From Candidatus Falkowbacteria bacterium (GTDB lineage: Bacteria > Patescibacteriota > Patescibacteriia > JACRDY01), in contig JACRDY010000059.1 in assembly GCA_016218485.1 (NCBI GenBank), positions 11,529-75,528 of the forward strand: DNA of 64,000 nt. The letters run 5' to 3'. Below, in pieces: positions 1 to 63,890 of this stretch. Within the stretch, counting starts at the first letter, position 1, and each line of letters starts with the position of its first letter. The notes under the pieces were generated by a model that was not told where the DNA came from, made no database searches, and was given only the letters and a program-made list of their open reading frames with translations. The translations under genes and the position numbers were made by a program.

Positions 1-894
1 AATGGCGAAATTATTTCCGCGGATAGCCGGCAGGTGTATCGGGGGATGGATGTGGGGACGGGCAAAGATTTATTAGCATATACGGTGACACTGCCTAAGA
101 AAAAATCCAAAATCCAAAGTTCCAAATCCCAAAAAATTCAGGTACATCTGATTGATGTAGTCAGCCCGCGGACGGATTTCACCGTGGCTGATTACCAAGC
201 GAAGGCGTACCGCGCTATTCGTCAGATTTTAGCCCGTGGTCATCTGCCGATTATTGTTGGCGGCAGCGGGCTGTACGTCAGCGCCGTGACCGAGGGGTAC
301 CAATTACATAAAATCAAAAGTTCAAAATCCAAAGTCAAAAAAGTCCGCCGGGGGTTAGACGGTGTATCGTTACCTCAGCTGCTGGCGCGCTTACAGCGTT
401 TTGATCCAGAGACGTTTGCTAAGATCAATCACCGCAATCGGCGGCACGTGCAGCGGGCGTTGGAGATTTATTATTTGACGGGCCGGCCGAAGTCAATTAT
501 TGAGGCTCAGCAGAAGCCGCAGTGGGATTTTTTGAAGATCGGTTTAAGTATTCCCAAAATAGAACTCCACCGTCGTATTGATGAACGGCTGACGCAACGG
601 CTCGAGCGCGAGGGGATGGCGGCAGAAGTGGCGCGGCTGCACCGGGAAGGCATCAGCTGGCGCCGGCTGGAGAGTTTTGGTTTAGAATACCAGTGGCTGG
701 CGCGGCTGCTGCAAAACAAGATTGATTACCCGACGATGCGCTCCGGTTTGTCGCGCGATATTAAACACTTCGTCAAGCGACAGCTGACCTGGTGGCGGCG
801 GGATAAGGAAATTATGTGGCTGGGTGATTACCGTTCGGTTGAAAAGAGGGTTAGGGAGTTTTTGACACAAAACATTAAAACATTAAAACACTAG
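1..894 (+). CDS. miaA: tRNA dimethylallyltransferase (5' truncated by window)
   Basis: Frame is open from base 1: NGEIISADSRQVYRGMDVGTGK, HLID, PIIVGGSGLY, and KRQLTW near the C-terminus. Confidence 0.95.
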   Translation, partial: NGEIISADSRQVYRGMDVGTGKDLLAYTVTLPKKKSKIQSSKSQKIQVHLIDVVSPRTDFTVADYQAKAYRAIRQILARGHLPIIVGGSGLYVSAVTEGYQLHKIKSSKSKVKKVRRGLDGVSLPQLLARLQRFDPETFAKINHRNRRHVQRALEIYYLTGRPKSIIEAQQKPQWDFLKIGLSIPKIELHRRIDERLTQRLEREGMAAEVARLHREGISWRRLESFGLEYQWLARLLQNKIDYPTMRSGLSRDIKHFVKRQLTWWRRDKEIMWLGDYRSVEKRVREFLTQNIKTLKH

Positions 895-946
895 AACATT
901 AAAACAACAGCGTGTTTTAATGTTCTAGTGTTTTAATGTTTTAATG
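873..946. repeat. Perfect 34-bp inverted repeat built from ATTAAAAC-like units, overlapping the miaA and gatB stop codons
   Basis: 873-906 is the exact reverse complement of 913-946, with a 6-nt loop. Confidence 0.95.
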
Positions 947-2439
947 AGTAGTTTTTGCACCATTTCCGGGTTGGCCTTGCCTTTGGTTTCTTTCATCACT
1001 TGGCCGACGAAGAACTGGAGGACGTTGGTTTTGCCGGACCGGTACTTGGCCACGTTATCGGGGTTTTCCGCGATGACGCGGGTAATGATTTTGGCTATCT
1101 CCGCCGAGTCGTCCAGTTGAGCCAAGTCTTCTTGGTTCATAATGTCGCTCGGATCGCTGCCGCGCTCAAACATCATGCGGAGGATTTTTTGGGCGGCGGT
1201 GGAGTTGACCTTATTTTGGTAGACCAGGGTAATAAACTCGGCGAAGTTTTCCGGAGTGATTTTCAGCTCAGCCATACTGGCGTTGGCTTCGTTGATGAGC
1301 TTGAATAGCTCGCTCGTCAGCCAGCCGCCGAGGAGTTTAATCAGTTTTTTCTTATTTTTATCCCAAATTTCTTCCGGATTGCCCTCGACGGTTTCGAGTG
1401 AGACCAGCCAGGCCTGGAGCTCGGAGATGGTGTTTTCGGTGAAGCTGGCGAGCGGAGCGTCCGCGGTCAGGAGCCGGGCGTCTTCGGCAGTGAATCCGTA
1501 CTCGGTTTCAAAGCGAGCGCGTTTGGCGATCGGCAGCTCCGGCAGCTGGGCCTGGAGTTTTTCGTAGTGAGTCTGGTCGCATGTCAGGGGCGGGAGATCC
1601 GGCTCCGGGAAGTAGCGGTAGTCGTGACTGGATTCTTTGGTGCGCTGACTGACGGTCGCCTGTTTTTTCTCGTCCCAGCCGCGGGTTTCCTGAGTTACTT
1701 TTTCCCCTGTGTCCAGGAGCTGGCCCTGCCGTTCGATTTCATAGTCAATGGATCGTTCCACCACGCGGAAGGAGTTGAGGTTTTTGATTTCCACTTTGGT
1801 GCCAAACTCTTTTTGCTGGTCCGGCCGCAGGGAAATATTGACCTCGCAGCGCATCTGGCCTTTTTCCATATCAGCGTCCGCGATACCGAGTGTGCGCACG
1901 ATCAGCTGGAGCTCTTGGCAGAAGGTTTTGGCTTCCCAGCCGTTTGTCATGTCAGCCTCGCTGACCAGCTCAAGGAGCGGCGCGCCGGAGCGGTTGAGGT
2001 CTACGAGCGTGACGCCCTGGCCGCGTCCCGCTGCCGCGGGCAGGCCCTGGCTGTCATGTTTGAGGCTGCCAGTGTCTTCTTCCAGGTGAATATGATTAAT
2101 GCGGATTTTCCGTCCACCGACTGCAATATCGCCGCCGACGATCGGCGGGTGGTTGGCGGAAGTGATCTGGTAGCCTTTGGGTAAGTCAGGATAAAAATAG
2201 TTTTTGCGCTCAAACCTGAATTCCGGCTGGATCGCTCCGTTGACAGCCAGGCCCAGGAGCGCGGTCCACTCCACGGCTTGCCGGTTGATCACCGGCAGAG
2301 CGCCGGGCTGGGCGGTACAGATCGGGCAGATGTTGGTGTTTGGTGGCGCGAGCTCGGTGTTGGCGCAACCACAAAACATCTTGGACTTGGTGTTCAGGTG
2401 CAGGTGGATTTCCATGCCGATGGTTGGGAGGTATTTCAT
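925..2439 (-). CDS. gatB: Asp/Glu-tRNA amidotransferase subunit B
   Basis: IGMEIH, KNYFYPDLPKGYQI, HLEED, DYRYFPEPDLPP, FFVGQVMK motifs. Confidence 0.98.
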   Translation of the reverse strand: MKYLPTIGMEIHLHLNTKSKMFCGCANTELAPPNTNICPICTAQPGALPVINRQAVEWTALLGLAVNGAIQPEFRFERKNYFYPDLPKGYQITSANHPPIVGGDIAVGGRKIRINHIHLEEDTGSLKHDSQGLPAAAGRGQGVTLVDLNRSGAPLLELVSEADMTNGWEAKTFCQELQLIVRTLGIADADMEKGQMRCEVNISLRPDQQKEFGTKVEIKNLNSFRVVERSIDYEIERQGQLLDTGEKVTQETRGWDEKKQATVSQRTKESSHDYRYFPEPDLPPLTCDQTHYEKLQAQLPELPIAKRARFETEYGFTAEDARLLTADAPLASFTENTISELQAWLVSLETVEGNPEEIWDKNKKKLIKLLGGWLTSELFKLINEANASMAELKITPENFAEFITLVYQNKVNSTAAQKILRMMFERGSDPSDIMNQEDLAQLDDSAEIAKIITRVIAENPDNVAKYRSGKTNVLQFFVGQVMKETKGKANPEMVQKLLIKTLKH

Positions 2440-2562
2440 AGTAACTACGAATAATTCCTACGAATGACAAATAAGTAAACAGAAATTGGAAATTAGATAT
2501 TGGAAATTAAAGACACGGCTTATCCGGGGCTAATCAGTAGGAACGGAGAATACCCCGCCGTA

Positions 2563-2830
2563 ACTCCCCCTGCCAAGGGGGAGACGCCTCCGTTGCTGAG
2601 GTCTCTGCCCCGCCCCGCATTGTGCGGGGGGCGGAGCCGAAGCTTACGGAGGCGAGAGGGGGTGGGAGCGAAAACCCCACCCTGTCCCTCCCCTTACTTC
2701 GGTCGCCTGCGGCGAACCTTGTAAGGGGAGGAGACTGTCGAGCAACTTTTGGGTAGAGACAAAAGACTCCGGCAACCCCTCCTGTCCTCCCCCAACGCAT
2801 GAGGGAGAGACCGTCGAGCACGCTTGGTTG
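2563..2830. repeat. Cluster of GC-rich REP-like palindromes (CCCTCCCCTT...AAGGGGAGG family)
   Basis: 2563-2668 is an inverted near-copy of 4991-5085; 2674-2830 has relatives at 12810-13160, 19850-20040, 32378-32520 and 39650-39815. Confidence 0.85.
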
Positions 2831-6402: not shown

Positions 6403-6560
6403 AAGTTCAAAGTTCAAAAGTTATAAAGTTGAAAGTTCAAAGTCCAAAATCCCAAGTTCAAAGTTCAAATCAAGTTCAAAGTTTTAAGTTCAAATGCCAA
6501 ATCAGCGCATTGTTTGAACTTTGTCATTAGGTATTGATTTGAACTTTGGATTTTGAACTT
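6403..6560. repeat. Inverted heptamer-array element (AAGTTCA family)
   Basis: AAGTTCA-like units on the left and TGAACTT units on the right; homologous to 14323-14448 and 45397-45519. Confidence 0.9.
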
Positions 6561-7126
6561 TAGTTATTTTTTGCTTTAATAGTTTTCAGAATGTCCTCAA
6601 TCTGCTGGTGCAGCTGTTCAATCGTGCCGTTGTTGTTAATCGTGAAGTTGGCAGTCTGGCCGGTTTCCAGGATGTGGATTTCCGCTTCGGCTCGTTCATC
6701 CTGCTGGAATTGTTCAAAGGTTTTACTGGTATCATCAACGTTTTCTCCGCGTTTGATGATTCGTTCGTAGCGAATTGGTTGATCAGCGGTTAGGTAAATG
6801 AGGGAGAAGCCGGCGAACCGTCGCAGGTATTTGATGTCCGGTTCACGGCGGACGCCGTCAACGGCGATCAGTTCGGCCGAATCTTTATTGACGTCTTCGG
6901 CAATCACCCGCGCCAGCGTGTCTTGGCCAAAATTTTTACGCAATGTTTGCGACATGTGCTGCATATTATCGCGGACGATCGGCAGGTACAAGCGGCCGAG
7001 GATATCGCGCAGTATGCCGGAAAACCGGTATGACGGCGCGCCGTATTTCTCCTTGAGATACTGGCAGGCGGTGCCTTTGCCACTGGAGATTTCGCCGACA
7101 AAGCCGAGGATGATTTTATTGGCCAT
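6560..7126 (-). CDS. P-loop nucleotide kinase (dephospho-CoA kinase / dNMP kinase-like)
   Basis: GFVGEISSGKGT, VDGVR, and INNNGT at the C-terminus. Confidence 0.75.
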   Translation of the reverse strand: MANKIILGFVGEISSGKGTACQYLKEKYGAPSYRFSGILRDILGRLYLPIVRDNMQHMSQTLRKNFGQDTLARVIAEDVNKDSAELIAVDGVRREPDIKYLRRFAGFSLIYLTADQPIRYERIIKRGENVDDTSKTFEQFQQDERAEAEIHILETGQTANFTINNNGTIEQLHQQIEDILKTIKAKNN

Positions 7127-7381
7127 AGTAGCAAGTTAGAAAGTTATAAAGTTGAAAGTTTAGTTTTTTTAACTTTTCTGCTGGGGGGGTTCCGTTCATA
7201 GCCCTTTGGGCTTGAGTGGATTAGCTCATGAAGACGAGCTGACGATTCCCCTCAACTCCACGCTATATTTTCATCACTACGCACTATTGATAATATTTAA
7301 TCATGTGCTATAGTTTAAATAGAAATGTCAATTTTATACCCCAACAAATCCATCTCTTTTCTAGGCGGGTTTGTTTTTTAG

Positions 7382-8346: not shown

Positions 8347-9141
8347 ATGGGTACGGCTAATATAAAAAATATTAAAGTAGCAGCGAAAGCCGGCGGGGAG
8401 GTACTCCGGCAGTATTTCGGTCAGGCTTTAAAAACTACCATTAAAACCGGTCCGGCGGATTTTGTGACCCAGGCGGATCTAGAGTCCGAGGCGGAAATTA
8501 TCAGAATTCTGGAAGCGGCGTTCCCGGACTACAATATTGACTCAGAAGAGCGCGGGCTGATTGATAAGGGTTCGGATTGGACATTTGTCATTGACCCGTT
8601 GGATGGTTCCAATAATTTTGTTTGTGGGATACCAAATTTTGCTGTTAGCATTGCTTTGTTAAAACAAAATACGTTGGAGGTTGGGGTTATTCAAGTGCCA
8701 TTATCCGGTCAGATTTATTGGGCGGCTCGGAATCAGGGTGCTTATGTCGGTGATTTGCCTAATCAGCCGCTCAGGGTGAGTGCGGCTCGGGAAATAAACT
8801 GTTCAACGATTGCCGTGGGTATGGGGTATGATGCTGTTCCTATGCGACAGACTATTTATAATCGGCTGGCCGCGATCCGTTTCCAGCGGGTATTGTCGGG
8901 CTGGTGTTCCACGCTGGAGCACGCGGTTTTGGCGGCGGGCAAGATTGAATTGGCGCTGCAGTACAAGGGCGAGCAGTATGATTTTTTGGCCGGGAAAATT
9001 ATTATGCGGGAAGCCGGTGCGATCATTACCGATTTGGCTGGCCAGCCGGAGAGCAGTGACTTGAACGGCAGTTTCATCGCCGGGAACAGCCGGGAGATGG
9101 TAGAGAAGTTTTTGGCGGGGATGGATTGGCAGGAATTATAG
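8347..9141 (+). CDS. Inositol monophosphatase family protein (SuhB-like)
   Basis: DFVTQAD, SEE, IDPLDGSNNF, YDFLAG motifs. Confidence 0.92.
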   Translation: MGTANIKNIKVAAKAGGEVLRQYFGQALKTTIKTGPADFVTQADLESEAEIIRILEAAFPDYNIDSEERGLIDKGSDWTFVIDPLDGSNNFVCGIPNFAVSIALLKQNTLEVGVIQVPLSGQIYWAARNQGAYVGDLPNQPLRVSAAREINCSTIAVGMGYDAVPMRQTIYNRLAAIRFQRVLSGWCSTLEHAVLAAGKIELALQYKGEQYDFLAGKIIMREAGAIITDLAGQPESSDLNGSFIAGNSREMVEKFLAGMDWQEL

Positions 9142-9611
9142 TTGAAAGTTATAAAGTTGAAAGTTATAAAGTTTTTATAAATCCAGAGATGAGTTTTGAT
9201 ATCTCAGTCGCCAGTTGAATGTACTGTGTGAATTGATCGTTGGGTATATATTTTAATTCTCGGCCAATATAGAGCATTGATCGTACTTCTCCACAGGATC
9301 CTTTGGCGATATAGAGGAAGGCGATGAATTCTTTATTCGTCCGGCGTTCAAACCCTTCAGCGATATTATTCATAATAGAGACTGAAGCTCTTTGAATTTG
9401 ATCACGGAATCCCCAGTCTTTATTATCTCTCATTGATGTGTATATGAGTAAGGATAATATTTGAGCTTTTTGCCAGGCAATAATATCTTCAAATCTTTTA
9501 ATAATCATATACTCACAGTATAAGAATAATTATTAAAAAATATCTAAACTCTTGATTTTTCCCTTTATAATTTGCAACTTTATAACTTTATAACTTTCAA
9601 CTTTATAACTT
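9140..9611. mobile_element. Putative cassette: four-helix gene bracketed by inverted AAGTTGA/AAGTTATA arrays
   Basis: Left array 9140-9173 and reverse-complement array 9576-9611; mobility is inferred. Confidence 0.55.
9164..9508 (-). CDS. Four-helix bundle protein (23S rRNA IVP / Avd-like family)
   Basis: FEDIIAWQKA, DQIQRASVSIMNNIAEGFER, FLYIAKGSCGEVRS; AT-rich relative to its neighbours. Confidence 0.92.
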   Translation of the reverse strand: MIIKRFEDIIAWQKAQILSLLIYTSMRDNKDWGFRDQIQRASVSIMNNIAEGFERRTNKEFIAFLYIAKGSCGEVRSMLYIGRELKYIPNDQFTQYIQLATEISKLISGFIKTL

Positions 9612-9671
9612 TTTTAACTAAAAAACCCCGTGGGCATATCCCACGAGCTTTTTTAAATTTTCAATCCGGAG

Positions 9672-10355: not shown

Positions 10356-10368
10356 AGGTATTTCGTTC

Positions 10369-10406: not shown

Positions 10407-10422
10407 AGTTAGTTGTCAGTTA

Positions 10423-10488
10423 GAAAGTTGAAAGTTATAAAGTTAAAAGTACAAAACTTTCAACTTTATAACTTTATAATTTTAAACT
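10423..10488. repeat. Empty inverted AAGTTGA/AAGTTATA array element
   Basis: Same units as the four-helix flanks; its core is the reverse complement of the core of 10970-11041. Confidence 0.85.
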
Positions 10489-10911
10489 TTATTCCACCAT
10501 AATCCCCATCTGTCGGGCCGTGCCTTCAATAATGCGCATGGCGGCATTGATGTCATGAGCGTTGAGATCAACCATTTTTTTCTCGGCGATCTCTCTCACT
10601 TGAGCGCGGGTGACTTGGCCGACTTTTTCTTGCAGCGGTTTGCCTGAACCTTTGGCTACACCCGCGGCTTTTTTTAAGAGTTCAGCGGCCGGCGGAGTTT
10701 TGAGAATAAAGGTGTAGGTGCGATCCTCGTAGATGGTGATTTCACAGGGAGTAATGTCACCCGGCATTTGCTTGGTGGCTTCATTAAATTTACTGCAGAA
10801 TTCACTGATGTTCACGCCATGCTGGCCGAGCGCCGGGCCGACCGGCGGCGCCGGGTTGGCTTGCGCGCCCGGGATCTGCAGCTTGACGATTGTTTTGATT
10901 TTCTTAGCCAT
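10489..10911 (-). CDS. rplK: 50S ribosomal protein L11
   Basis: [29 protein letters not shown]. Confidence 0.98.
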
Positions 10912-10962: not shown

Positions 10963-10969
10963 GTTAGTT

Positions 10970-11041
10970 AAAAGTTAGAAAGTTGAAAGTTATAAAGTTG
11001 AAAGTTTTGTACTTTTAACTTTATAACTTTCAACTTGTAAC
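10970..11041. repeat. Empty inverted AAGTTGA/AAGTTATA array element
   Basis: Inverted copy of 10423-10488. Confidence 0.85.
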
Positions 11042-11587
11042 TCAGATTTTTTTTACTTGCAGGAAATCCAGCTCCACCGGTGTCTCGCGGCCGAACATAG
11101 AGACGAGCGCCTTGATCTTGCCGCGGGTTTCATCAATCTCGGAAATTTTTCCTTCAAAGTTTTTGAACGGGCCGTCCACGATGCGGATGGGCTGGCCGAT
11201 AGAGAGGTCAATGGTGTAGGTTGGCTCTTCCACGCCCTTGCGTTTCATGATAGCTTCCACTTCTTTTTTGGACATGGGCGTCGGCACCGTGCCGGAGCTG
11301 GTGAAGCCGGTGACGTTGGGGGTATTGCGCACCACGTACCAGGAATCATCAGTGACGGTCATTTCCACCATGATGTAGCCGGGGAAGATTTTTTCCTCAA
11401 TGACTTTCCGTTTACCATTTTTGATTTTGATCTTTCGCTCAGTCGGAATAACCACGTTAAAAATTTTGTCGTCCATACCCATGGAGACAATTCTGGACTT
11501 GAGGTCTTCCACCACTTTTTCCTCATAGCCGGAGTAGGTGTGAATGACGTACCAGCGGCGGCCGAGCTGTAGTGTTTGTTTTGGCAT
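11042..11587 (-). CDS. nusG: Transcription antitermination factor NusG
   Basis: WYVIHTYSGYE, FPGYI, DGPF, FGRETPVELDF. Confidence 0.98.
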   Translation of the reverse strand: MPKQTLQLGRRWYVIHTYSGYEEKVVEDLKSRIVSMGMDDKIFNVVIPTERKIKIKNGKRKVIEEKIFPGYIMVEMTVTDDSWYVVRNTPNVTGFTSSGTVPTPMSKKEVEAIMKRKGVEEPTYTIDLSIGQPIRIVDGPFKNFEGKISEIDETRGKIKALVSMFGRETPVELDFLQVKKI

Positions 11588-11594: not shown

Positions 11595-11645
11595 TAGTCC
11601 CTAGTCCTTAGTCCTTAGTCCTTAGTCCTTAGTCCTTAGCTCTTA
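11595..11645. repeat. (TTAGTCC)n heptamer array
   Basis: About 6 units between secE and nusG; reverse complement of the array at 13232-13272. Confidence 0.9.
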
Positions 11646-11831
11646 GCGGTTGATGAGGTATTCAAAGCCAAAGGAAAAGATATAGTCTAGGAGACCCAAA
11701 AAGGCGGCCAACACCAGGCTGATGCCGATCACCAGCGCGGTGTGTTTGGTCGTTTCTTTTTTGGTCGGCCAAGTGACTTTTTTGAGTTCCACCTTGGATT
11801 CTTTGAAATATTCCACGATTTTGTTGGCCAT
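11643..11831 (-). CDS. secE: Preprotein translocase subunit SecE
   Basis: ELKKVTWPT plus a single TM helix; upstream of nusG. Confidence 0.95.
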   Translation of the reverse strand: MANKIVEYFKESKVELKKVTWPTKKETTKHTALVIGISLVLAAFLGLLDYIFSFGFEYLINR

Positions 11832-13200: not shown

Positions 13201-13231
13201 CTTTTCTTTCAAAATTTGGTAAAATACTAAT

Positions 13232-13272
13232 AACTAAGGACTAAGGACTAAGGACTAAGGACTAAGGACTAT
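13232..13272. repeat. (TAAGGAC)n heptamer array directly before the pilT start
   Basis: At least five exact units. Confidence 0.9.
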
Positions 13273-13273: not shown

Positions 13274-14323
13274 ATGGATATCAACCAATTTTTCTCGACC
13301 GCCATTACCAAGGGCGCTTCAGACGTTCACCTGGTGGCCGGGCACAAACCGACTGTCAGAATTTTTGGCAAGCTGCAGGAAATAGACGCTAGCGCGAGCG
13401 CGCTGGATAACGCGGAATTAACCAAGGGTATTTTTGGTCTCTTAACCAAAGAGCAGGTGGGGCGGTTTGAGCGCGAGTGGGAGCTGGACTTCGCCTACCA
13501 GGTGGATCACACCCGCTTCCGCGTCAACCTGCACTACCAGCTGGAGCAGATCGGCCTGGCCGCGCGTCTGGTGCCCAAAGATATCCCCACGCCGGCCGAG
13601 ATTAACCTGGAGCCGGTGCTCTACGAGCTGACGCACCTCAACCAGGGGTTCATCCTCGTCACCGGACCGACCGGCAGCGGTAAATCCACCACCATTGCCA
13701 GCATGCTCAATATTATCAATACCGAGCGGCGGTCGCACATCATTACCCTGGAAGATCCGATTGAGTTCATTTACCCCAAGCAGCAGAGTATCGTGGAGCA
13801 GCGCGAAGTCGGCCGCGACACCAAAACTTTCCACGCCGGGCTGAAGTATGTCCTGCGCCAGGATCCTAACGTCATCCTGATTGGCGAAATGCGCGACCCG
13901 GAGACCATCGCCGCCGCCCTGACCGCGGCCGAGACCGGGCACTTGGTTTTTTCCACCCTGCACACCAATTCGGCGGCCGAGACCGTGGAGCGGATCATTG
14001 ATTCGTTTGACTCCGAGCGGCAGCGCCAGATCCTGATCCAGCTTGGTTCGGCTTTGAAGGCGGTCGTGACGCAGCAGCTGGTGCCGACCGTGGAAGACAA
14101 GGTGACGGTGGCGCGGGAAATTATGATCAATACGCCCGCCATCGCCAACCTCATCAGGCAGAATAAGATCGCCCAGATTCCCTCGGTCATCCAGACCGGC
14201 CGTAATGATGGCATGATGACGATGAGCGCGGCGCTCAAAAATCTCTACAACAACGGACTGATTTCCGCCGATGTCTACCAGCACCGGCTGGTGAGCAGTG
14301 AGAAGGTGGGAAGTTACTTTTAG
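13274..14323 (+). CDS. pilT: Type IV pilus retraction ATPase
   Basis: ASDVHL, GPTGSGKSTT, EDPIEF, LRQDPNVILIGEMRD, AETGHLVFSTLHTN. Confidence 0.96.
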   Translation: MDINQFFSTAITKGASDVHLVAGHKPTVRIFGKLQEIDASASALDNAELTKGIFGLLTKEQVGRFEREWELDFAYQVDHTRFRVNLHYQLEQIGLAARLVPKDIPTPAEINLEPVLYELTHLNQGFILVTGPTGSGKSTTIASMLNIINTERRSHIITLEDPIEFIYPKQQSIVEQREVGRDTKTFHAGLKYVLRQDPNVILIGEMRDPETIAAALTAAETGHLVFSTLHTNSAAETVERIIDSFDSERQRQILIQLGSALKAVVTQQLVPTVEDKVTVAREIMINTPAIANLIRQNKIAQIPSVIQTGRNDGMMTMSAALKNLYNNGLISADVYQHRLVSSEKVGSYF

Positions 14324-14448
14324 TTGAAAGTTCAAAGTTCAAAATCCAAATGACAAATCAATGCCAAATGACAAAGTTCAAAAGGTGCGACTATTAGGCA
14401 TTTAAACTTTGAACTTGATTTGAACTTTTGATTTTGAACTTTGAACTT
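14323..14448. repeat. Inverted heptamer-array element (AAGTTCA family)
   Basis: Fills the whole intergenic gap; homologous to 6403-6560 and 45397-45519. Confidence 0.9.
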
Positions 14449-16668: not shown

Positions 16669-16805
16669 ATTGTTACATTGCTACATTGCCAAATTGCCAA
16701 ATGGTCATTCTGTTATATTGCTATATGGTTATACTGTTAAATACCCCACCAAACAATATAACAGTATAGCAATGTGACAATTTAGCAATTTGGCAATGGA
16801 GCAAT
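16668..16805. repeat. Inverted octamer-array element (ATTGCTAC/ATTGCCAA family)
   Basis: 8-nt-period arrays in inverted orientation; related copy at 32660-32739. Confidence 0.8.
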
Positions 16806-16871
16806 GTATTTTCCCATCTGTCCCGCCCATCTTGATTTTTCCTCATTCATCTGCTACACTGCCCAAACTCT

Positions 16872-18173
16872 ATGCGCGCTGTTATCGCCAAAATTCTCCG
16901 TTTCTTTGCTCGGAATGTATTGCAGAAATACCAGCCGGACGTTGTTGGCGTGACCGGCAGTATTGGTAAGACGTCCGCCAAGGAAGCCATCTTCACCGTC
17001 CTGTCCAGCGAGTTCCGCGTGCGCAAGACCGAGAAGAATTACAATAACGAGCTGGGCCTGCCTCTGACTGTCCTCGGTCTGGAAACCGGCGGGCGCAACC
17101 CCTTCTCTTGGCTGATGGTCATGGTGCGCGCCGCCAAGCTGTGGCTGCTGCGCTCCGTGAATTATCCGGAGATTTTGATCCTGGAAATGGGGGCGGATCG
17201 GCCCGGCGACATCAAGTACCTGACCGATTTCGTTCCCTGCACTGTCGGAGTGGTGACGGGCGTGGCGCCGGTGCACATTGAATTTTTCCAGCACCTTGAA
17301 CATATCGCCAAGGAAAAGAACACCCTGGTCAAAAGTTTGGGCAGAGAGGGCACGGCCGTGCTCAATGCCGATGATGAGCTGGTGCGGGCCATGGCCGAGG
17401 GGCTGAAAGCCAAAGTCATCACCTATGGCTTTTCCGAGCACGCCAGTCTGCGCGCCTACGAAGAGCGGGTGTCTGGTCAAGACCTGTCGCTCAAAGATGG
17501 CGTGGAGGCTATCCGGGGTTTGAGTTTCAAAGTGTCATACGGCGGCAGCACCGTGCCGGTATTCCTGCCGTCCGTGGTGGGGCGCCATTCGGTCAACGCC
17601 GCGCTGGCCGCCATTGCCGTGGGTGTGGCGTGTGGCATCAACCTGGTGCGTATTTCCGAAAATCTCAAACAGTATCGTCCGCCCAAGGGCAGAATGAACC
17701 TGATTGACGGCATCAAATACACGCTGATCATTGACGACACCTACAATTCTTCGCCGATTCCGGCGCTGGCCGCGCTGGATGTGCTCCACGAGATACAGCT
17801 GCCCACGGGTCGGCACAAGTTCGCGGTCCTTGGCGATATGCTGGAACTGGGCGGCTACACCGAGAAAGCGCATCTGGAAGTGGGGCGCAAAGTGGCCGAG
17901 CTCCGCATTGATTACCTGGTGACGGTTGGCGAGAAGTCGCAGAGTACCGCCAACGCCGCGCGCGGCGCCGGTATGTCGCCGGATCGCATCTACTCATTTG
18001 ACAATTCCCGGGAAGCTGGTAAATTCCTGCAGGATCGGGTGGAGCAGGGCGATTTGATCTTAGTTAAAGGTTCGCAGGGTATGCGGATGGAGCGGATCGT
18101 CAAAGAGCTGATGGCCGAACCATTGCGCGCCGCTGAACTGCTGTGCCGGCAGGAAGGGAAGTGGTTGCAATAA
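16872..18173 (+). CDS. murF: UDP-MurNAc-tripeptide--D-Ala-D-Ala ligase
   Basis: GVTGSIGKTS, NNELGLP, DDTYNSSP, LGDMLELG, LVKGSQ. Confidence 0.93.
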   Translation: MRAVIAKILRFFARNVLQKYQPDVVGVTGSIGKTSAKEAIFTVLSSEFRVRKTEKNYNNELGLPLTVLGLETGGRNPFSWLMVMVRAAKLWLLRSVNYPEILILEMGADRPGDIKYLTDFVPCTVGVVTGVAPVHIEFFQHLEHIAKEKNTLVKSLGREGTAVLNADDELVRAMAEGLKAKVITYGFSEHASLRAYEERVSGQDLSLKDGVEAIRGLSFKVSYGGSTVPVFLPSVVGRHSVNAALAAIAVGVACGINLVRISENLKQYRPPKGRMNLIDGIKYTLIIDDTYNSSPIPALAALDVLHEIQLPTGRHKFAVLGDMLELGGYTEKAHLEVGRKVAELRIDYLVTVGEKSQSTANAARGAGMSPDRIYSFDNSREAGKFLQDRVEQGDLILVKGSQGMRMERIVKELMAEPLRAAELLCRQEGKWLQ

Positions 18174-18349
18174 TTACGAATTACGAATTACGAATGAGTG
18201 ATTTTTAATTCGTAATTATTAACAGGAGTTACGCACTTCTAAAATTTTCAGCTAATTTTAGAGTAACAATAAAAATTATTAACAGCTAATTTTAGCCAAT
18301 TTTTATTAAAAGTGCGTAACTCCTGTTATTAATTCGTAATTCGTAATTA
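18171..18349. repeat. Inverted (AATTACG)n heptamer element interrupted by a MITE
   Basis: AATTACG units on the left and CGTAATT units on the right; same unit at 14792-14817 and 47995-48019. Confidence 0.85.
18223..18325. mobile_element. 103-bp MITE with 16-bp terminal IRs and a 7-bp target duplication
   Basis: CAGGAGTTACGCACTT / AAGTGCGTAACTCCTG, flanked by TTATTAA on both sides. Confidence 0.85.
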
Positions 18350-22472: not shown

Positions 22473-22476
22473 TTGA

Positions 22477-22720
22477 GTATCTAGTATCTAGTATCTGGTA
22501 TCTAGGGAAAAGTCACTGCTGTAAGTTAATTTTAGATATTCAACTTTAGATGCCGTCTATGAAAAAGCGCTGACGAGCAGCGTAGCCTTAAATCAGACGA
22601 GCAAAATATATCAGACTTTAGCAAAATAAGCAAGGTAAGTAGAGGAGGTGTCTCATAATCTAGGTGATTTTCCCAGATACCAGATACCAGATACCAGATA
22701 CTAGATACCAGATACTAAAT
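22477..22720. repeat. Inverted (GTATCT[A/G])n / ([C/T]AGATAC)n arrays in the divergent typA-dedA gap
   Basis: Arrays at 22477-22505 and 22673-22720. Confidence 0.85.
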
Positions 22721-22741
22721 ACGGTATACTGTAGGTAATTT

Positions 22742-30481: not shown

Positions 30482-30668
30482 CATGCATGCGAGATTCAAT
30501 CCACCGGCGTTCGCGCCGGTGGCTTTCATTTAACAAAGATTTCAAGAAACAAAGAATCAATCGGTAAGTATTGTTTCGTTGCTTATTTGCTTCTTTGTTT
30601 CTTGGCCCCCCTGTTTCTTGGCCCCCTTGACTATTCAGGCGTAATTATTCTAAGATAACAAAATCCCA

Positions 30669-45396: not shown

Positions 45397-45519
45397 AAAA
45401 TTCAAAGTTCAAAATCCAAATGACAAATCAAGTTCAAAGCCTAAATGTCAAATCAACGCACCTTTTTGAACTTTGTCATTTGGCATTGATTTGAACTTTG
45501 GATTTTGAACTTTGAACTT
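45397..45519. repeat. Inverted heptamer-array element (AAGTTCA family)
   Basis: Homologous to 6403-6560 and 14323-14448. Confidence 0.9.
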
Positions 45520-49007: not shown

Positions 49008-50018
49008 ATGGTTCAAAAAGTCCGCGTCGCCATTAACGGTTTCGGTCGCATTGGCCGGGCGGCATTTAAAATTGCTTTAGACAACAAGAAAGTGGAGGTG
49101 GTGGCGATTAATGATCTGGTGGCGCCGTCGGTGCTGGCGTATCTTTTAAAATATGATTCAGTCTACAATACGTACGATAAGAAAGTGACCGCTGACAGTA
49201 AACACGTCATCGTCAATGGCAAGAAGTATCCGGTGTTTCAGGAGCGCGAGCCAAAGAGATTGCCCTGGAAAAAGTTGGGAGTGGATGTGGTTTTGGAGTG
49301 CACCGGATTTTTTCTGGACACGGCCGGGGCCGGACAGCACCTGCGGGCGGGCGCCAAAAAAGTGGTCATCTCCGCACCGGGCAAAGACGATGTGGCCAAC
49401 ACGCACGTCTTCGGCACTCTAGAGACGCAGAAGCATGTTAAGCACGGCCAAGTGGTTTCCAACGCTTCCTGCACCACCAATTGCATCAGCCCGGTGATGC
49501 AAGTCTTGGCCACCGTGTTTGGGATTGAGAAAGCGATGATGACGACCGCGCACGCCTATACCGCGAGCCAGGGGCTGGTTGATGAACCAAACAGCAAGGA
49601 TATGCGTGAAGGCCGCGCGGCGGCAATGAACCTAGTACCCACCCACACCGGCGCGGCGGAGGCGACCGCCAAAGTGGTCCCGGCGCTGCAGGGAAAATTC
49701 ACCGGTATTTCCATCCGCGTGCCCGTGATCTGCGGTTCGTTGTCTGACGTCACCTGTGTTTTGAAAAAAAATGTGACGGCAGAACAGGTCAATAATGCGT
49801 TTCGCCGCGCTGCCAAGCAGCCGCTGTTCAAAAATATTCTGGAAGTTTCCGACGCACCATTAGTTTCCAGTGACATCATTGGCAATCCGCATTCGGCGAT
49901 CGTGGACACGACCTTTACCCGCGTGGTTGACGGTAACTTAGTGAAGGTTTTGGCCTGGTATGATAACGAGTGGGGGTACGCGCACCGGTTGGTGGAGATG
50001 GCGGTGGCAGTAAGTTAG
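49008..50018 (+). CDS. gap: Glyceraldehyde-3-phosphate dehydrogenase
   Basis: INGFGRIGR, SNASCTTNC, WYDNEWGY. Confidence 0.98.
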   Translation: MVQKVRVAINGFGRIGRAAFKIALDNKKVEVVAINDLVAPSVLAYLLKYDSVYNTYDKKVTADSKHVIVNGKKYPVFQEREPKRLPWKKLGVDVVLECTGFFLDTAGAGQHLRAGAKKVVISAPGKDDVANTHVFGTLETQKHVKHGQVVSNASCTTNCISPVMQVLATVFGIEKAMMTTAHAYTASQGLVDEPNSKDMREGRAAAMNLVPTHTGAAEATAKVVPALQGKFTGISIRVPVICGSLSDVTCVLKKNVTAEQVNNAFRRAAKQPLFKNILEVSDAPLVSSDIIGNPHSAIVDTTFTRVVDGNLVKVLAWYDNEWGYAHRLVEMAVAVS

Positions 50019-50120
50019 TAATCAGTAATCAGTAATCAGTAATCAGTAATCAGTAATCAGTAATCAGTAATCAGTAATCAGTAATCAGTAACTAGTTACT
50101 AGTTACTGATTACCAGTTAC
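50016..50120. repeat. (GTAATCA)n heptamer array, about 10 units, with a shorter inverted arm
   Basis: Exact tandem units at 50018-50090, followed by TTACTAG/TTACTGA units. Confidence 0.92.
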
Positions 50121-50129
50121 TTTATAAAT

Positions 50130-51237: not shown

Positions 51238-51441
51238 AAAAATTAGAAATTGGAGAAAAACCCTTTGAAATAAAAGGTTTTTTATTTGCCAAAATAGGGG
51301 ATTCTGGTATAGTTGATGAGGGAGAAATTCAGTATTTCCTGCGTTTTAGTTATTGGAAAGAGATTTAGTATATCGTATGTCGTATATGGTATGTGGGGAA
51401 ATTCCCCCATATACCATATACCACATACTATATTCCCCCCT

Positions 51442-53091
51442 ATGCTCAACTGCAAGAATTGTAATCAACCTTTCACCATCTACCCCGAAGACCAGGAAAT
51501 GTACGATAAGTTTGCCGTACCCGCGCCGCGGCGTTGTCCGCGTTGCCGGCTGATTCAGCGGCTGATGTTCCGGAACGCTCGGGCCCTGTATTACCGGAAG
51601 TGCGACCGCAGCGGCGAGACCATTTTGTCCAGCTATAATCCGAGTCAGCCGTTCCCGGTGTACAAGCCGGATATTTGGTGGAGTGACCAATGGGAAGCCA
51701 TGGATTACGCCCGGGATTATGATTTTGGCAAACCATTTTTTGCCCAATTCAAAGAGCTGAATGACGTGGTACCGCACTTCAGCCTCTTCGTCAGTAATGG
51801 CACGGTGGTGAATTGCGACTTTACCAACTGTATTGGTTTTTCCAAGAATTGTTATTTGACGTTTGAGACTGACTACGCGGAGGACAGCTATTACTCCAAC
51901 CTCTTGAAACGGAGCAAGGACATGGTGGACTGTTCTATTTGCTATGATGATGAATTTTGCTACCAGTGCGTTGATTGCCAGGCGTCGTACGGCTTGCGCT
52001 ATTGTCAAAATTGCACCGGTTGCCGGGACAGCTATTTCCTGTTTGATTGTAAATCGTGTAATGACTGCATCGGCTGTATCAACCAGCGCTATCAGAAATT
52101 CATGATTTTTAACGAGCAGTACAGTGAAGCAGAATATAACCAGAAAAAAGCCGCGCTGCGGCTGGATACCCGCTCGGGCGTCGCGGCGCTCGCTTCGCAG
52201 TGCCAGCAGTTTTTCGGGAAGCACCCGCACAAAAATTTGCAGTTTGAAAAGAACGTCAATAGTGTCGGTAACTATTTGTATAACTCCAAAAACGCATTCC
52301 AGTGCTTCGACTGCAGCGACCTGGAAGACTGCCGCTACTGCGCTAAGCTGTCAATCGGCGTCAAGTCGTGCATGGATTACAACTCGTGGGGCGACCGGGC
52401 GGAGCTCGTCTACAGCTGTTCGGATGTCGGCGGCGGCGTGTATAACCTGAAATTTTGCTGGGCGATTGATACCAAGACCTCAGACTGTGAATACTGCACG
52501 CAGTGTATTGCCTGCAAGGACTGCTTTGGCTGCAGCGGACTGCAAAAGAAGCAGTACTGCATTTTGAATAAACAGTATTCGGAAAAAGAGTATTTCGCGT
52601 TGAAAGAAAAAATTATTGCCAAAATGACAGCCGATGGAGAGTATGGTGAATTTTTTCCGGCAGAGCTGTGTCCGTTTGCCTATAATGAAACCATCGTGAT
52701 GGATTATTTCCCCCTAACCAAAGATGAAGCGTTGAAAGCCGGCTATCGCTGGTATGACCGGGAAAAGTCCAAGCAGCCTGCTGAAACTGAGGCGCCGGAT
52801 GCGATTGGCGAGGTGGCGGACGCCATCATTGGTAAGGTATTAGCCTGCCGTGATTGCCAGTCAAATTATAAGATTATTAAACAAGAATTAGATTTTTGCC
52901 GTCGGGCGAGCGCGCCGATTCCTAGCCAGTGTCCGGACTGCCGACATTTTGGCCGAATGAACAAGCGGATGCCGCTGAGTTTGATCACGGTCAAATGCGA
53001 TAAATGCGGCAATGACATGACGACCGGATATACTGCCGGGGCGGTGCAGAAGGTGTATTGCGAGGAATGTTATCAGAAGGAAATTTACTAG
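51442..53091 (+). CDS. Cys-rich repeat protein, paralogue 1
   Basis: N-terminal CxxC...CPxC, many CxxC repeats, YCILNKQY, C-terminal VYCEECYQKEIY. Confidence 0.88.
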   Translation: MLNCKNCNQPFTIYPEDQEMYDKFAVPAPRRCPRCRLIQRLMFRNARALYYRKCDRSGETILSSYNPSQPFPVYKPDIWWSDQWEAMDYARDYDFGKPFFAQFKELNDVVPHFSLFVSNGTVVNCDFTNCIGFSKNCYLTFETDYAEDSYYSNLLKRSKDMVDCSICYDDEFCYQCVDCQASYGLRYCQNCTGCRDSYFLFDCKSCNDCIGCINQRYQKFMIFNEQYSEAEYNQKKAALRLDTRSGVAALASQCQQFFGKHPHKNLQFEKNVNSVGNYLYNSKNAFQCFDCSDLEDCRYCAKLSIGVKSCMDYNSWGDRAELVYSCSDVGGGVYNLKFCWAIDTKTSDCEYCTQCIACKDCFGCSGLQKKQYCILNKQYSEKEYFALKEKIIAKMTADGEYGEFFPAELCPFAYNETIVMDYFPLTKDEALKAGYRWYDREKSKQPAETEAPDAIGEVADAIIGKVLACRDCQSNYKIIKQELDFCRRASAPIPSQCPDCRHFGRMNKRMPLSLITVKCDKCGNDMTTGYTAGAVQKVYCEECYQKEIY

Positions 53092-53110
53092 CGCACAGCA
53101 CAGAGCTTAT

Positions 53111-53150
53111 AGCACAAAGCTATGCGCTCTGAGCTCTGTGCTTTGAGCTA
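53111..53150 (+). repeat. 40-bp junction repeat type A
   Basis: Identical at 54860-54899 and 58437-58476. Confidence 0.95.
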
Positions 53151-56565: not shown

Positions 56566-56642
56566 GAACGACACGCCCTCTGGGCGTGTTATGTTTGTTA
56601 CGCGCTCTGTAACCATAACACAGCCAGAGGCTGTGTCGTTCC
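56565..56642. repeat. Junction repeat type B (REP doublet)
   Basis: Near-identical to 60114-60191. Confidence 0.9.
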
Positions 56643-56695
56643 CTTGGAGGAACAATTTTTGACAAAATTTAAAATCCTGGCTATACTAAAGCATT

Positions 56696-58417: not shown

Positions 58418-58477
58418 TGCACAGCACAAAGCGCACAGCACAAAGCTATGCGCTCTGAGCTCTGTGCTTTGAGCTAT

Positions 58478-60109: not shown

Positions 60110-60200
60110 CAAGGGAACGACACGCCCTCTGGGCGTGTTATGTCGGTTACACGCTCTGTAACGATAACACAGCCAGAGGCTGTGTCGCTCCGAACAGCAT

Positions 60201-61841
60201 ATGCCAACCTGTAAACAATGCACCACCGACTTTCCCATCACCGACGCAGACAAAACGTTCTACGCTAAGATTAGCGTACCCGAGCCGACGCGCTGTCCGG
60301 ACTGCCGGCAGCAGCGACGGTTGTCGTGGGTCAATGAAATGAATCTATATCCCCGTCAGTGCGACCTATCAGGTAAAAATATTATTTCGTCATGTCGGCC
60401 GGATAGCGGCTTGATTATTTATGATACTCACCGGTGGTGGGGTGACGGCTGGGAAGGTCTGAATTTTGGGGTTGAGTATAATGAGGGTCAAAAATTTTTT
60501 GATCAATTTTTTGCATTACATAAGACCGTACCCCATCCAGCGCTCAACGTTACCTATGGCACGTTGATTGACAGCGAGTACGTGAATTACTGTGGTCATA
60601 CCAAAAGTAGCTACCTGATATTTGACAGTGACTACGATGAGGATTGCTATTACTGCTATTCAGTTAATAATTCTAAAGACCTGGTTGATTGTTTAAAAAT
60701 GCAGCGTTCTGAATTGTGCTATAGCTGTATTGACTGCGATGAATGTTTTAACTTGTTTTACTCTCAAGATTGTTTGCGCTGTTCCGAGAGTTATTGGTTA
60801 AAAAACTGTTACAACTGCGTCAATTGTTTTGGCTGCGTGAATGCGCGGAATCAGAAGTATTGTTGGTTCAACGAACAATTAACGCCGGAAGAATATCAAC
60901 GTCGTTTAGCCGGAGCTACCATCAGCAGCCGTCAGGCGGTTAGACAGTGGCAGACGAAGTATGCGGATTTTAGATTGCAGTATCCCTGTATTTACCAGCA
61001 CGGGATCAAAAATGACGGCTGTACCGGCGATTACCTGAAAAACACCAATCAAGTCGCTGATTCGTATGATTGCTGGGAGGCGCAGAATTGCCGCTACTGT
61101 TACGCGATTTATTTTTCCTCAAAAGATATGTATGACGTTTTCCAGTGGGGGAATTGTCAGCTGATGTATGAAGGCGTGGTGGTGGGGGAGAATGATTATA
61201 ACTGCAAATTTTGTTTCCAATGCTATAACAGCTGTCAAAACCTAGAATACTGTTTTGAGAGTCATGGCTGCAAAAACTGCTTTGGCTGTGTTGGCTTAAA
61301 GAAAAAAGAATTTTGCATTCTTAATAAACAGTATACCGAACCGGAGTACTTACGATTACGGGAACAGATTATTCAGAAAATGAAAGCCGATGGTGAATAT
61401 GGCGAGTTTTTCCCGGCGGCATATTCTCCGTTTGGTTATAATGAAACGACGGCCCGGTTTTACTATCCGTTGTCGCGCGAGCAGGCGCTGGAACGTGGCT
61501 GGCGCTGGTTTGATCAAGAGGAAAAGAACGTTGATCATAAAGCACCGCCGGATGATTTGGGAATGGTGACCGAGGATATATTGAGAGAAACGTACGTCTG
61601 CGCCTGTGGCAAGTCGTTCAAAATTATTCCCCAGGAATGGAAATTTTATCAGAATTTAAAAATCCCTCTGCCCGATCAATGTTACATCTGCCGTCATCAG
61701 GATAGACTACGGCAGCGCAACCCGCAGCATCTCTGGCCGCGTCAGTGTGCCAAATGTCAGAAAGACATGCAGACGACATATGCTCCGGACCGGCCGGAAA
61801 TAGTCTACTGTCGTGAATGTTTCCGCGAGGCAGTGTATTAG
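60201..61841 (+). CDS. Cys-rich repeat protein, paralogue 6
   Basis: Same architecture; ends VYCRECFREAVY. Confidence 0.88.
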   Translation: MPTCKQCTTDFPITDADKTFYAKISVPEPTRCPDCRQQRRLSWVNEMNLYPRQCDLSGKNIISSCRPDSGLIIYDTHRWWGDGWEGLNFGVEYNEGQKFFDQFFALHKTVPHPALNVTYGTLIDSEYVNYCGHTKSSYLIFDSDYDEDCYYCYSVNNSKDLVDCLKMQRSELCYSCIDCDECFNLFYSQDCLRCSESYWLKNCYNCVNCFGCVNARNQKYCWFNEQLTPEEYQRRLAGATISSRQAVRQWQTKYADFRLQYPCIYQHGIKNDGCTGDYLKNTNQVADSYDCWEAQNCRYCYAIYFSSKDMYDVFQWGNCQLMYEGVVVGENDYNCKFCFQCYNSCQNLEYCFESHGCKNCFGCVGLKKKEFCILNKQYTEPEYLRLREQIIQKMKADGEYGEFFPAAYSPFGYNETTARFYYPLSREQALERGWRWFDQEEKNVDHKAPPDDLGMVTEDILRETYVCACGKSFKIIPQEWKFYQNLKIPLPDQCYICRHQDRLRQRNPQHLWPRQCAKCQKDMQTTYAPDRPEIVYCRECFREAVY

Positions 61842-61902
61842 ACACAGATTACACAGATAATCACAACTGGCACAGATCCGTGTGATCTGTGTAATCTGTG
61901 TC
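61841..61902. repeat. Inverted 9-mer (ACACAGATT) array element
   Basis: GACACAGATTACACAGAT / ATCTGTGTAATCTGTGTC. Confidence 0.85.
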
Positions 61903-62257: not shown

Positions 62258-62414
62258 TGTCCCCTCCTATGGTTTGAGGATGTCTATAGGGTACAGGGAT
62301 TTTTTCTTTTTGTCAAAGGTATTTAAAAGGTATTTAAAATCCACATTATTTTCGGGGGACGAATTTTGTGCTATACTGTGTTTACCGATATATCAATAAT
62401 TAAAGAGGTATTTA

Positions 62415-62536
62415 GATATTAGAAATTAGATATTGGAAATTAAAGACTCTACTTTTCTGGTTAACCGGGGTTTTAAAATCTTGGTTAAGAAAGACATTGC
62501 TGACAAACAATTTCCAATATCTAATTTCCAATTTCT
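62415..62536. repeat. MITE-like element with GAAATT(A/G) heptamer ends
   Basis: Inverted homologue of 8072-8216. Confidence 0.8.
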
Positions 62537-62543
62537 ATTTTTT

Positions 62544-63803
62544 ATGAAAATAAAACAAATCCGCGCTCGTGAGATTCTTGATTCTCGCGGCGACCCGACC
62601 GTTGAGGTCGAGGTAGTGTTGAGGAACGGCATTCGGGTGAAAGCTTCAGTACCCTCCGGCGCTTCCACGGGCGCGCATGAGGCTTGGGAGTTCCGTGACG
62701 GCGACAAGAAACGGTACGGTGGTAAGGGTGTGTTGAAAGCGGTACGAAACGTCAATGACAAAATCGCGCCGATGCTTCTGGGCCAGCGTGCCAATAAGCA
62801 GTCGTACCTGGATGAACTGATGATTAAGTTGGACGGCACCAAGAACAAGCAGAATCTCGGCGCTAATGCCATTCTCGGTGTGTCACTGGCAGTTGCCCGC
62901 GCCGCCGCGGCGAGTAAAGGCTGGCCTTTGTATAAATACCTCCGGACGTTGTCGTCGCTGGAACTGATGCGCTACCAGCTGCCCATGCCGATGTTTAATA
63001 TTTTTAACGGCGGTAAGCACGCCGACACCAATCTTGATTTCCAGGAATTCATGATCATCCCGAAAGGGCTGAACGGCAGCTTCGCGGAAAAAGTTCGGGC
63101 GGGCGCGGAAGTCTTTCATGCGCTTGGTAAAGTGCTCTTGGCCAACGGCAAAGATACCGATGTGGGGAATGAGGGCGGGTACGCGCCGGATATTCACCTG
63201 ACGACTGACGCCATCAAGTATATTCTGACGGCGATTACCAAAGCCGGATACAATAAGGGTAAACAGCAGATTTTTCTCGGCACTGACGTGGGCGCGTCCG
63301 AGCTCTACCGCAAGAGCCAAAAAGAGTATCATTTTCAGCTCGGGGTTCATCGCCTCAACCGTCAGCAGATGATTGACGAGTTTGCCGAATGGCTGACTAA
63401 GTATCCATTCTGTTCCATTGAAGACCCGCTGGATCAGGATGATTGGCTCGGCTGGCAGCAAATCACCAAACAGCTGGGCAGAAAGGTGATGCTGGTGGGC
63501 GATGATCTGTTTGTTACCAATGTCGATCGTTTAACCATAGGTATTAGTAAAAATGCGGGCAATGCCGTTTTGGTCAAGCTCAATCAAGTCGGCAGCCTGT
63601 CTGAAACCCTGCGCTGTATTGAGCTGGCTAAGGCGCATCGCTACAATGTGGTGATTTCGCACCGCTCTGGTGAAACATCCGATGATTTTATCGCTGATCT
63701 GGCCGTGGCGGTCAATGCCGAGTATATCAAGTCAGGGTCGCTGTCCCGCGGCGAGCGTCTGGCCAAGTATAATCGGCTGATGGAAATTGAGAGAGAAATT
63801 TAA
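62544..63803 (+). CDS. eno: Enolase
   Basis: EILDSRGDPTVEVE, VPSGASTG, SHRSGET, ERLAKYNRL. Confidence 0.97.
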   Translation: MKIKQIRAREILDSRGDPTVEVEVVLRNGIRVKASVPSGASTGAHEAWEFRDGDKKRYGGKGVLKAVRNVNDKIAPMLLGQRANKQSYLDELMIKLDGTKNKQNLGANAILGVSLAVARAAAASKGWPLYKYLRTLSSLELMRYQLPMPMFNIFNGGKHADTNLDFQEFMIIPKGLNGSFAEKVRAGAEVFHALGKVLLANGKDTDVGNEGGYAPDIHLTTDAIKYILTAITKAGYNKGKQQIFLGTDVGASELYRKSQKEYHFQLGVHRLNRQQMIDEFAEWLTKYPFCSIEDPLDQDDWLGWQQITKQLGRKVMLVGDDLFVTNVDRLTIGISKNAGNAVLVKLNQVGSLSETLRCIELAKAHRYNVVISHRSGETSDDFIADLAVAVNAEYIKSGSLSRGERLAKYNRLMEIEREI

Positions 63804-63890
63804 GATTGCAGATTTCAGATTGCAGATTGGTATAGTAGTAACGTTACGTACCAACCCAATCTGCAATCTGAAATCTGCAATCTGAAATCT
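63803..63890. repeat. Inverted (AGATT[G/T]C)n heptamer element
   Basis: Fills the eno-gpmI gap. Confidence 0.9.

Follow-up and report, generated by a model that had tools for sequence, protein, structure and literature searches.

Several described systems resemble the repeat elements considered here, which lie at gene junctions throughout a 64,000-nucleotide stretch of Candidatus Falkowbacteria DNA (assembly GCA_016218485.1, contig JACRDY010000059.1; the window, G000:C49:11529-75528) and consist of short tandem arrays, or arms, of 7- to 9-nt units, commonly in inverted pairs, one of which encloses a gene for a four-helix-bundle protein. Repetitive extragenic palindromic sequences and their paired forms (REPs and REPINs) are associated with RAYTs, single-copy genes flanked by their own repeat, and also occur as gene-less inverted pairs in intergenic DNA. 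Enterobacterial repetitive intergenic consensus (ERIC) and Correia-type MITEs (miniature inverted-repeat transposable elements) are gene-less hairpins that begin at stop codons, and the short tandemly repeated repetitive (STRR) sequences of cyanobacteria are intergenic heptamer repeats. "Tandem inverted repeats" with an associated protein have reportedly been described in Cellvibrio; the literature search did not find that report, and a prior description is possible. The 23S rRNA intervening sequences (IVSs) of Coxiella and Leptospira carry an S23p (PF05635) open reading frame (ORF), and the Coxiella IVS has tandem heptamers and is cut by RNase III (PMC4990558). Xanthomonas has 70 to 75 inverted heptamer pairs of one orientation near stop codons, with four units preferred (PMC4692102), and Beggiatoaceae have heptamers before start codons (PMC4679880). 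In the Avd protein of diversity-generating retroelements (DGRs), all five protomers contact an RNA stem-loop (bioRxiv 10.1101/2023.10.23.563531).

The gene-bearing form of the elements, the cassette, shares with the IVS a protein of the same family within complementary ends, and the IVS likewise has tandem heptamers before its ORF (PMC4990558). Unlike the IVS, no cassette lies in rRNA, the eight paralogs have differing units, promoter boxes are present internally, and arms without a gene number in the hundreds; no rRNA was found in the window, and the flanks of all eight cassettes read as protein-gene junctions. As intergenic 7-mers, the arrays resemble the heptamers of Xanthomonas and Nostoc (PMC4692102) and of Beggiatoaceae (PMC4679880), but the main texts of those reports describe one unit per genome, name no partner protein, and do not contain the term "four helix," whereas at least 14 families occur together here and are matched to proteins. 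Dispersal, as whole units, of inverted pairs that carry the repeat of the gene but lack the gene itself is a REPIN-like property found here; unlike REPINs, the enclosed gene codes for a four-helix bundle or a GxxExxY protein and not an HUH transposase, and the arms are tandem arrays and not 20- to 40-nt palindromes. The RAYT-like and Y1 genes of this genome lie elsewhere, with none enclosed by such arrays. The elements also differ from ERIC and Correia-type MITEs in that no cognate insertion sequence (IS) transposase was found and the ends differ by family; no transposase is present among the genes enclosed by detected arm pairs, a statement that does not extend to a genome-wide IS survey.

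The protein has the fold of DGR Avd (4DWL; template modeling [TM] score, 0.78, to the model of the window protein), whose pentamer binds nucleic acid with all five subunits (bioRxiv 10.1101/2023.10.23.563531). No DGR reverse transcriptase lies beside an Avd-like gene, template and variable repeats not having been searched for. The sole PF00078 match in the genome (G000:C7:10493-11746, locus L192) is retron-like and below family cutoffs, has YADN for YADD, follows a long leader and a cluster-7 element, and lies some 2 kb away from a cassette, the two being separated by a convergent gene; a reverse transcriptase was considered as the mover of the elements and set aside, this degenerate gene being the only candidate. 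The elements are thus not IVSs (they are not in rRNA), REPINs (there is no HUH gene), or DGRs, and the cassette is a real new variant of the IVS cassette, placed at mRNA junctions and accompanied by many gene-less derivatives. Literature searches, supplements excluded, found no paper joining heptamer repeats with a four-helix-bundle protein, the parts being separately in print. An earlier note on this DNA, which knew of no named system that would explain the arrays, is broadly right in this, although publications exist on heptamers paired in inverted orientation at stop codons (PMC4692102) and on those at the end of the S23p-bearing IVS (PMC4990558).

Repeat families and their protein partners

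The genome (G000; 981 kb in 69 contigs, 91.55% complete) is present in a groundwater metagenome run and is rich in these arrays. With a strict periodicity scan, the window has 14, 5, and 1 arrays of periods 7, 8, and 9, respectively, compared with no more than 0.05 per period across 20 local block shuffles; the whole genome has 194, 86, and 17 compared with 0 in two shuffles, and just 12 in total of periods 2 to 6. A looser scan finds 493 arrays, of which 456 are intergenic or at called-gene edges and 402 sort into 23 clusters (cluster 4 is a merger of one 7-nt and one 8-nt family). At least one array is present at 251 of 749 gene junctions, about a third, as counted with a simple in-house gene caller that missed some AT-rich genes. 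Same-family neighbors no more than 200 nt apart are inverted in 92 instances and direct in 8, and 91 of the 92 inverted pairs have their family's fixed polarity; these pairs take in 184 of the 402 clustered arrays. The median folding energy of the elements is -33 kcal/mol, and they occupy 21/61 convergent, 30/70 divergent, and 179/445 co-oriented junctions.

The earlier note listed 27 boundaries with 7- to 9-nt arrays and expected these periods to be enriched over a shuffled background; arrays are present at all 27, and the genome-wide scan bears out the enrichment, with period 9 in the minority. Its description of an array followed by the reverse complement applies to 18 of the 27 sites by a strict inverted-partner test and to 6403 and 30532 by eye, but the remaining seven (2481, 7133, 8072, 11595, 13232, 14792, and 47995) have a single arm or a decayed partner; inverted pairing is the rule without being universal. 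The noted abutment to stop and start codons is a property of outer edges, with a stop codon within 5 nt of 74/159 outer but 7/160 inner edges and an in-frame ATG within 20 nt past 80/366 outer but 9/366 inner ends. The note had also invoked one mechanism or one periodic ligand in the absence of conserved sequence, and it overlooked the gene enclosed by the 9140/9563 pair; instead, the members of a family have a conserved sequence, and every family is matched by a separate paralog from a single protein family.

The window pair at 9140 to 9612 encloses a gene coding for a 114-aa four-helix-bundle protein that scores above the PF05635/TIGR02436 profile cutoffs (116 bits compared with 33.8, and 113.7 compared with 24). 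Its structure model (predicted local distance difference test score, 97) matches 2GSC with TM scores of 0.87 to 0.91; 2GSC and 2RLD, both fold matches, are five-chain entries, and from these entries and PMC4990558 the family is likely to form pentamers. The cassette and its cluster-2 relatives are organized as follows.

9164..9508, minus strand: four-helix-bundle gene (PF05635/TIGR02436, 114 aa), cognate of cluster 2, by profile and structure model
9563..9612, minus strand: the cassette's 5' arm (cluster 2; 7- and 8-nt units mixed), directly past the rplA terminator-like hairpin
9140..9173, minus strand: 3' arm of the cassette, overlapping the stop of its own gene and that of a convergent inositol-monophosphatase gene
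9532..9550, minus strand: promoter box before the four-helix-bundle gene, followed by a -10-like hexamer
10418..10492, unstranded: gene-less cluster-2 element at the rplK-rplA junction
10966..11042, unstranded: gene-less cluster-2 element at the nusG-rplK junction
7129..7160, unstranded: cluster-2 arm with a decayed partner

A structured leader that in relatives is present only before rplA is duplicated here before rplK together with a cluster-2 element (10356-10415 and 10912-10965), and may put rplK under the same control as rplA.

The genome has eight PF05635 genes, all eight lying between inverted arrays and each with its own unit; for the paralogs on contigs C7 and C25, arms and proteins alike are related. 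A GxxExxY (PF13366) gene similarly lies between palindromes of a 9-nt unit. For the cassettes with clustered arms, polarity equals that of the gene-less family in seven of seven. The PF05635 family is present in 31 of 41 genomes of the class, and among 89 loci in 15 genomes an inverted unit is common to both gene flanks in 45 and a direct one in 3. Comparison with 81 of the listed four-helix-bundle genes of relatives, mostly from gene-rich genomes, gives a quick tree of 88 proteins (133 columns, locus L074 left out) in which clades carry like units across genera. Arms are alike (cosine of at least 0.4) in 11/23 cross-genome pairs with more than 60% protein identity compared with 20/1,524 pairs with less than 30%, and the arms of paralogs within one genome mostly differ (14/219 pairs alike).

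Like arms in kin can be explained by linkage alone, but the match between repeat core and protein clade holds between phyla as well. By record title, the 80 nearest homologs of the protein in the window (58 to 69% identity) include members of the Bacteroidota, Patescibacteria, Gammaproteobacteria, Spirochaetota, Bdellovibrionales, Neomarinimicrobiota, Omnitrophota, and KSB1. In 60 of these 80, the same 5-nt core is present two or more times within the 70 noncoding nucleotides past the stop codon, compared with 1.3 in shuffles and 2/83 in other clades; its reverse complement lies upstream of the gene in 73/80, with the same sense in 8. Spacings of 7, 8, and 9 nt between cores number 44, 19, and 67, respectively. 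Four or five units make up 120 of 184 arms, but the number ranges from 2 to 9, and slippage therefore probably acts on arms that already exist. Identity at fourfold sites among the homologs is 150/557 (0.27), and synonymous sites are thus saturated; retention of the core against this background points to selection on the core itself, beyond mere linkage. With its short length and flexible spacing, the core suggests single-strand recognition, one core to each protein subunit.

Gene-less copies and a candidate DNA-uptake regulon

Spacers have their nearest neighbor within their own family in 37 of 54 instances (4.4 expected); the elements are copied as units. The sites also turn over, as judged from the junctions of seven genomes of the family. 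At the nusG-rplK and rplK-rplA junctions, G000 has its cluster-2 elements, G001 has two other families, and G002 and G006 have none, with G003 and G004 having short remnants only, at nusG-rplK (all by eye). Past rplA, G001 has the same arm followed by the apparent end of a RAYT-like gene in place of the cassette, again by eye. Automatic tallies (5/28, 7/27, and 3/23 GTDB loci) are undercounts, the detector having missed the nusG-rplK element of G000 itself. Orthologous sites are thus not invariant in relatives, their ribosomal-protein junctions being empty or occupied by other families, and the earlier note's rejection of independent slippage is upheld by this gain, loss, and swapping of families together with the fixed polarity (91/92) and the within-family spacers.

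Gene-less copies tend to occur with the cognate gene. Among 200 genomes of the class, with at most four candidates scored per genome and cognate defined as at least 58% identity, 10 have the gene; gene-less copies are present elsewhere in 8 of these 10, compared with 22 of the 190 without it (Fisher P = 4e-6, kin not being independent). All eight genomes with an intact gene have gene-less copies, and the two with a stop-interrupted gene have none beyond its own arm (0/2). An origin of the gene-less elements as internal deletions of present cassettes was considered and rejected, since their spacers are no closer to the cognate interior than are others, with one exception. No empty or filled allele that could be used came from the contigs of three DNA runs, where joins at 85% likeness derived from other organisms or repeats, and one metagenome scanned for a close strain had none (best, 64%). 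The protein is present in 27 of 72,556 plasmid records and in no phage records.

A nonrepeat motif that closely precedes a -10-like hexamer is found at 46 places, compared with 7 to 10 in shuffles. A matrix trained without dprA gives 25 matches in G000, and boxes precede three four-helix-bundle genes and genes for GxxExxY, DUF559, three RAYT-like, and integrase-like proteins, as well as comM, dprA, and the genome's one OmpR-like regulator (contig C8); several of these boxes had been used in training, and names other than those from Pfam matches are readings of the sequences. Among held-out genes, the box lies before dprA in 4/30 genomes, all of them in the family of G000 (antisense, 0; nusG, 0/28; rplA, 0/27), and before 14/81 cassette genes of relatives, with none downstream. 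It also precedes the OmpR-like regulator in four and comM in three of five family genomes. dprA itself is found in 40 of 41 genomes. The box identifies a candidate family-specific DNA-uptake regulon, which some cassettes appear to have joined. Box sites besides that at 9532-9550 are as follows.

35330-35346 and 39611-39630 in the window, and G000:C8:15298, C57:562, C7:16076, and C20:359: promoter box

The box at 39611 belongs to a region (39611-40180) with a DUF559 gene broken by a TGA, which has the box and GC-rich palindromes upstream, as does the intact copy at G000:C31:988. Downstream of a promoter box and divergent from uvrA is a weak tRNA-like match (35231-35299; 29.8 bits) that ARAGORN does not call. 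LexA was considered as the box-binding protein and rejected, there being no box upstream of lexA; a Patescibacteria LexA network is the subject of PMID 28618189 (cited by PMC7739468 and PMC8565304). An 8-nt array of about 11 copies lies ahead of lexA (G000:C42:5555-5900, locus L081).

Mechanism and competing explanations

The anatomy and polarity of the elements, the one unit per paralog, the cross-phylum match of core and clade, the shared spacers, the site turnover, and the shared promoter box are best explained by an arrangement like that of REPINs, in which pentamers of the Avd-like proteins would likely bind their cognate arms and would promote their copying; we give this an even chance of being correct. 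The arrays would be the arms of many parallel element families, with each family's arms flanking its own Avd-like paralog or forming gene-less inverted pairs or single arms at junctions. Each pentamer, predicted from homolog crystals, likely binds its own family's short core directly, once per subunit, and probably on single-stranded DNA instead of RNA. The protein, perhaps coinduced with DNA-uptake genes, has the predicted role of helping arm pairs to be copied in trans to new junctions, and a host enzyme would do the cutting and joining. Copies would persist where genes are spared, with a stop codon at their beginning or a start codon after their end, and RNase III cutting of the hairpins could occur as a side effect. 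A more far-reaching version is possible, if tentative, namely, that these are a class of replicators lacking a transposase gene, in which Avd-like pentamers would read a family-specific code (a 4- to 5-base core, about five times, every 7 to 9 bases) on single-stranded DNA, would be switched on with DNA-uptake genes, and would plant hairpins at junctions through the host transformation machinery; protein-bearing rRNA IVSs and heptamer repeats would then be its full and empty forms.

Several observations weigh against REPIN-like copying. The protein has no known catalytic role, and binding and mobility are predicted. G001, G042, and G057 have 39 to 53 cluster-2 candidates, yet no cognate gene was found in them. 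Of the repeat families listed for the window, seven lack a cognate gene in this genome, which is 92% complete; three of these have cognate-like cassettes in relatives, and sampling of relatives identified none for the other four. The ends blur into repeats, and no target-site duplication is definable; the spacers are mostly unlike the cognate cassette interior. Underuse of TGA at stops (4/79 compared with 101/807; P = 0.03) is weak and amounts to a TAA/TAG bias, and an arm mirrors its own partner weakly (51/79; P = 0.014). The protein tree is a quick one on few columns, and the box precedes just three of the eight four-helix-bundle genes of G000 and was not found outside its family.

Alternatively, the protein would bind its arms only in cis, for self-regulation or protection of its own transcript, with gene-less copies being spread passively through transformation, gene conversion, and repeat-to-repeat recombination by the host, and with hairpin-templated copying making the second arm. 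Abundant copies in genomes lacking the cognate gene favor this, as do the nusG-rplK junction, which holds a duplicated element plus the leader normal to rplA, the palindromes of several kinds at 20/20 zinc-ribbon paralog ends with near-identical 3' DNA (by eye), the near-universal dprA, and the scarcity of the protein in plasmid records and its absence from phage records. It does not by itself predict copies that track an intact gene (8/8 intact, 0/2 broken) or a polarity fixed in 91 of 92 pairs, and we consider it doubtful. Host-selected mRNA elements are unlikely as well; these would be RNase III-cut hairpins or protein-binding sites that tune processing or translation, each paralog controlling a transcript set. 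Placement at stops and starts, the median folding energy, and the presence of an RNase III gene in the genome are consistent with such a role, as are cleavage of the heptamer-bearing Coxiella IVS by RNase III at the first repeat (PMC4990558), RNA binding by Avd (bioRxiv 10.1101/2023.10.23.563531), and the regulatory role proposed for Beggiatoaceae heptamers (PMC4679880). However, orthologous ribosomal-protein junctions in relatives are empty or have other families, convergent and divergent junctions are occupied about like co-oriented ones, and 70 elements between co-oriented genes have 37 G-U compared with 34 A-C mismatches and no strand bias in folding energy. There is no sign of transcribed-strand selection in these elements, and sense-strand RNA selection was set aside as unsupported by wobble pairs or energy. 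Intrinsic terminators were likewise rejected, with a U-tract at 8/92 on one side and 7/92 on the other, as was the idea that the repeats put stops in all frames, several units having no stop codon. Independent slippage arrays in AT-rich spacers would account for arm copy numbers that vary from 2 to 9, but as an origin this is contradicted by the period spectrum, the fixed polarity, the shared spacers, and the cross-phylum match with the protein clade, and is very improbable.

The elements bear on why many bacteria have 7-base repeats in excess and on what the S23p/four-helix-bundle family does, and heptamer repeats gain here a testable protein partner. Eight protein-repeat pairs in one genome are a ready specificity matrix for binding tests, and the cross-phylum short core at flexible spacing predicts a binding mode of one core per subunit. 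The promoter box provides a candidate DNA-uptake regulon, together with a candidate regulator, in an uncultured lineage. If REPIN-like copying is correct, a third of this genome's gene junctions would be shaped by an element class without its own transposase.

Other elements of the window

The remaining families of the window are listed with their cognate genes; elements are unstranded unless noted.

869..946: gene-less cluster-1 element, 8-nt unit, across two convergent stops; cognate gene G000:C52:15460
6403..6561: cluster-4 7-nt element; cognate genes G000:C7:13963 and C25:4398
14322..14448: cluster-4 7-nt element that spans from the stop of pilT to the start that follows
45397..45519: cluster-4 7-nt element following uvrC
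11595..11646, minus strand: single 3' arm, cluster 8, before the nusG start; cognate gene G000:C52:10054
13226..13271, plus strand: single 3' arm, cluster 8, before the pilT start
63798..63890: cluster-7 element following enolase; cognate gene G000:C27:32990
61839..61902: cluster-13 element, 9-nt unit; like arms around the GxxExxY gene G000:C9:5897
18172..18348: cluster-5 element before tRNA-Glu; no cognate found in G000, cognates in G001, G004, and G005
14793-14817 and 47996-48019: cluster-5 single arms
22476..22722: cluster-9 arms with a 167-nt spacer; cognate-like cassettes in G001, G003, and G004 (by eye)
51368..51433: cluster-9 element before the first zinc-ribbon paralog
50008..50121: cluster-11 element following gap; G001 has a cognate-like cassette (L006)
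62412..62545: cluster-3 element with a nested nontandem palindrome; no cognate identified in the genomes sampled
2481-2509 and 8076-8107: cluster-3 single arms
16669..16808, with another at 32665-32739: cluster-10 8-nt element; no cognate identified in the genomes sampled
30532..30626: cluster-14 degenerate element; no cognate identified in the genomes sampled
53089..53150, also 54838-54899 and 58415-58477: cluster-12 element joining zinc-ribbon paralogs; no cognate identified in the genomes sampled

The nontandem palindrome (8114-8175 and 62460-62495) occurs 25 times in the genome; 11 copies are adjacent to cluster-3 arrays or nested in them. Past uvrA is a lone DndB-like (PF14072) gene (38335-39414). 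Six tandem zinc-ribbon paralogs (51313-61841), of about 20 genome-wide, have ends conserved at the DNA level, with near-identical 3' DNA. By eye, a palindrome lies directly past the stop codon at all 20 of the 3' ends; cluster 12 and the 9-nt family account for six each, a nontandem kind for four, cluster 9 for one, and others for three.

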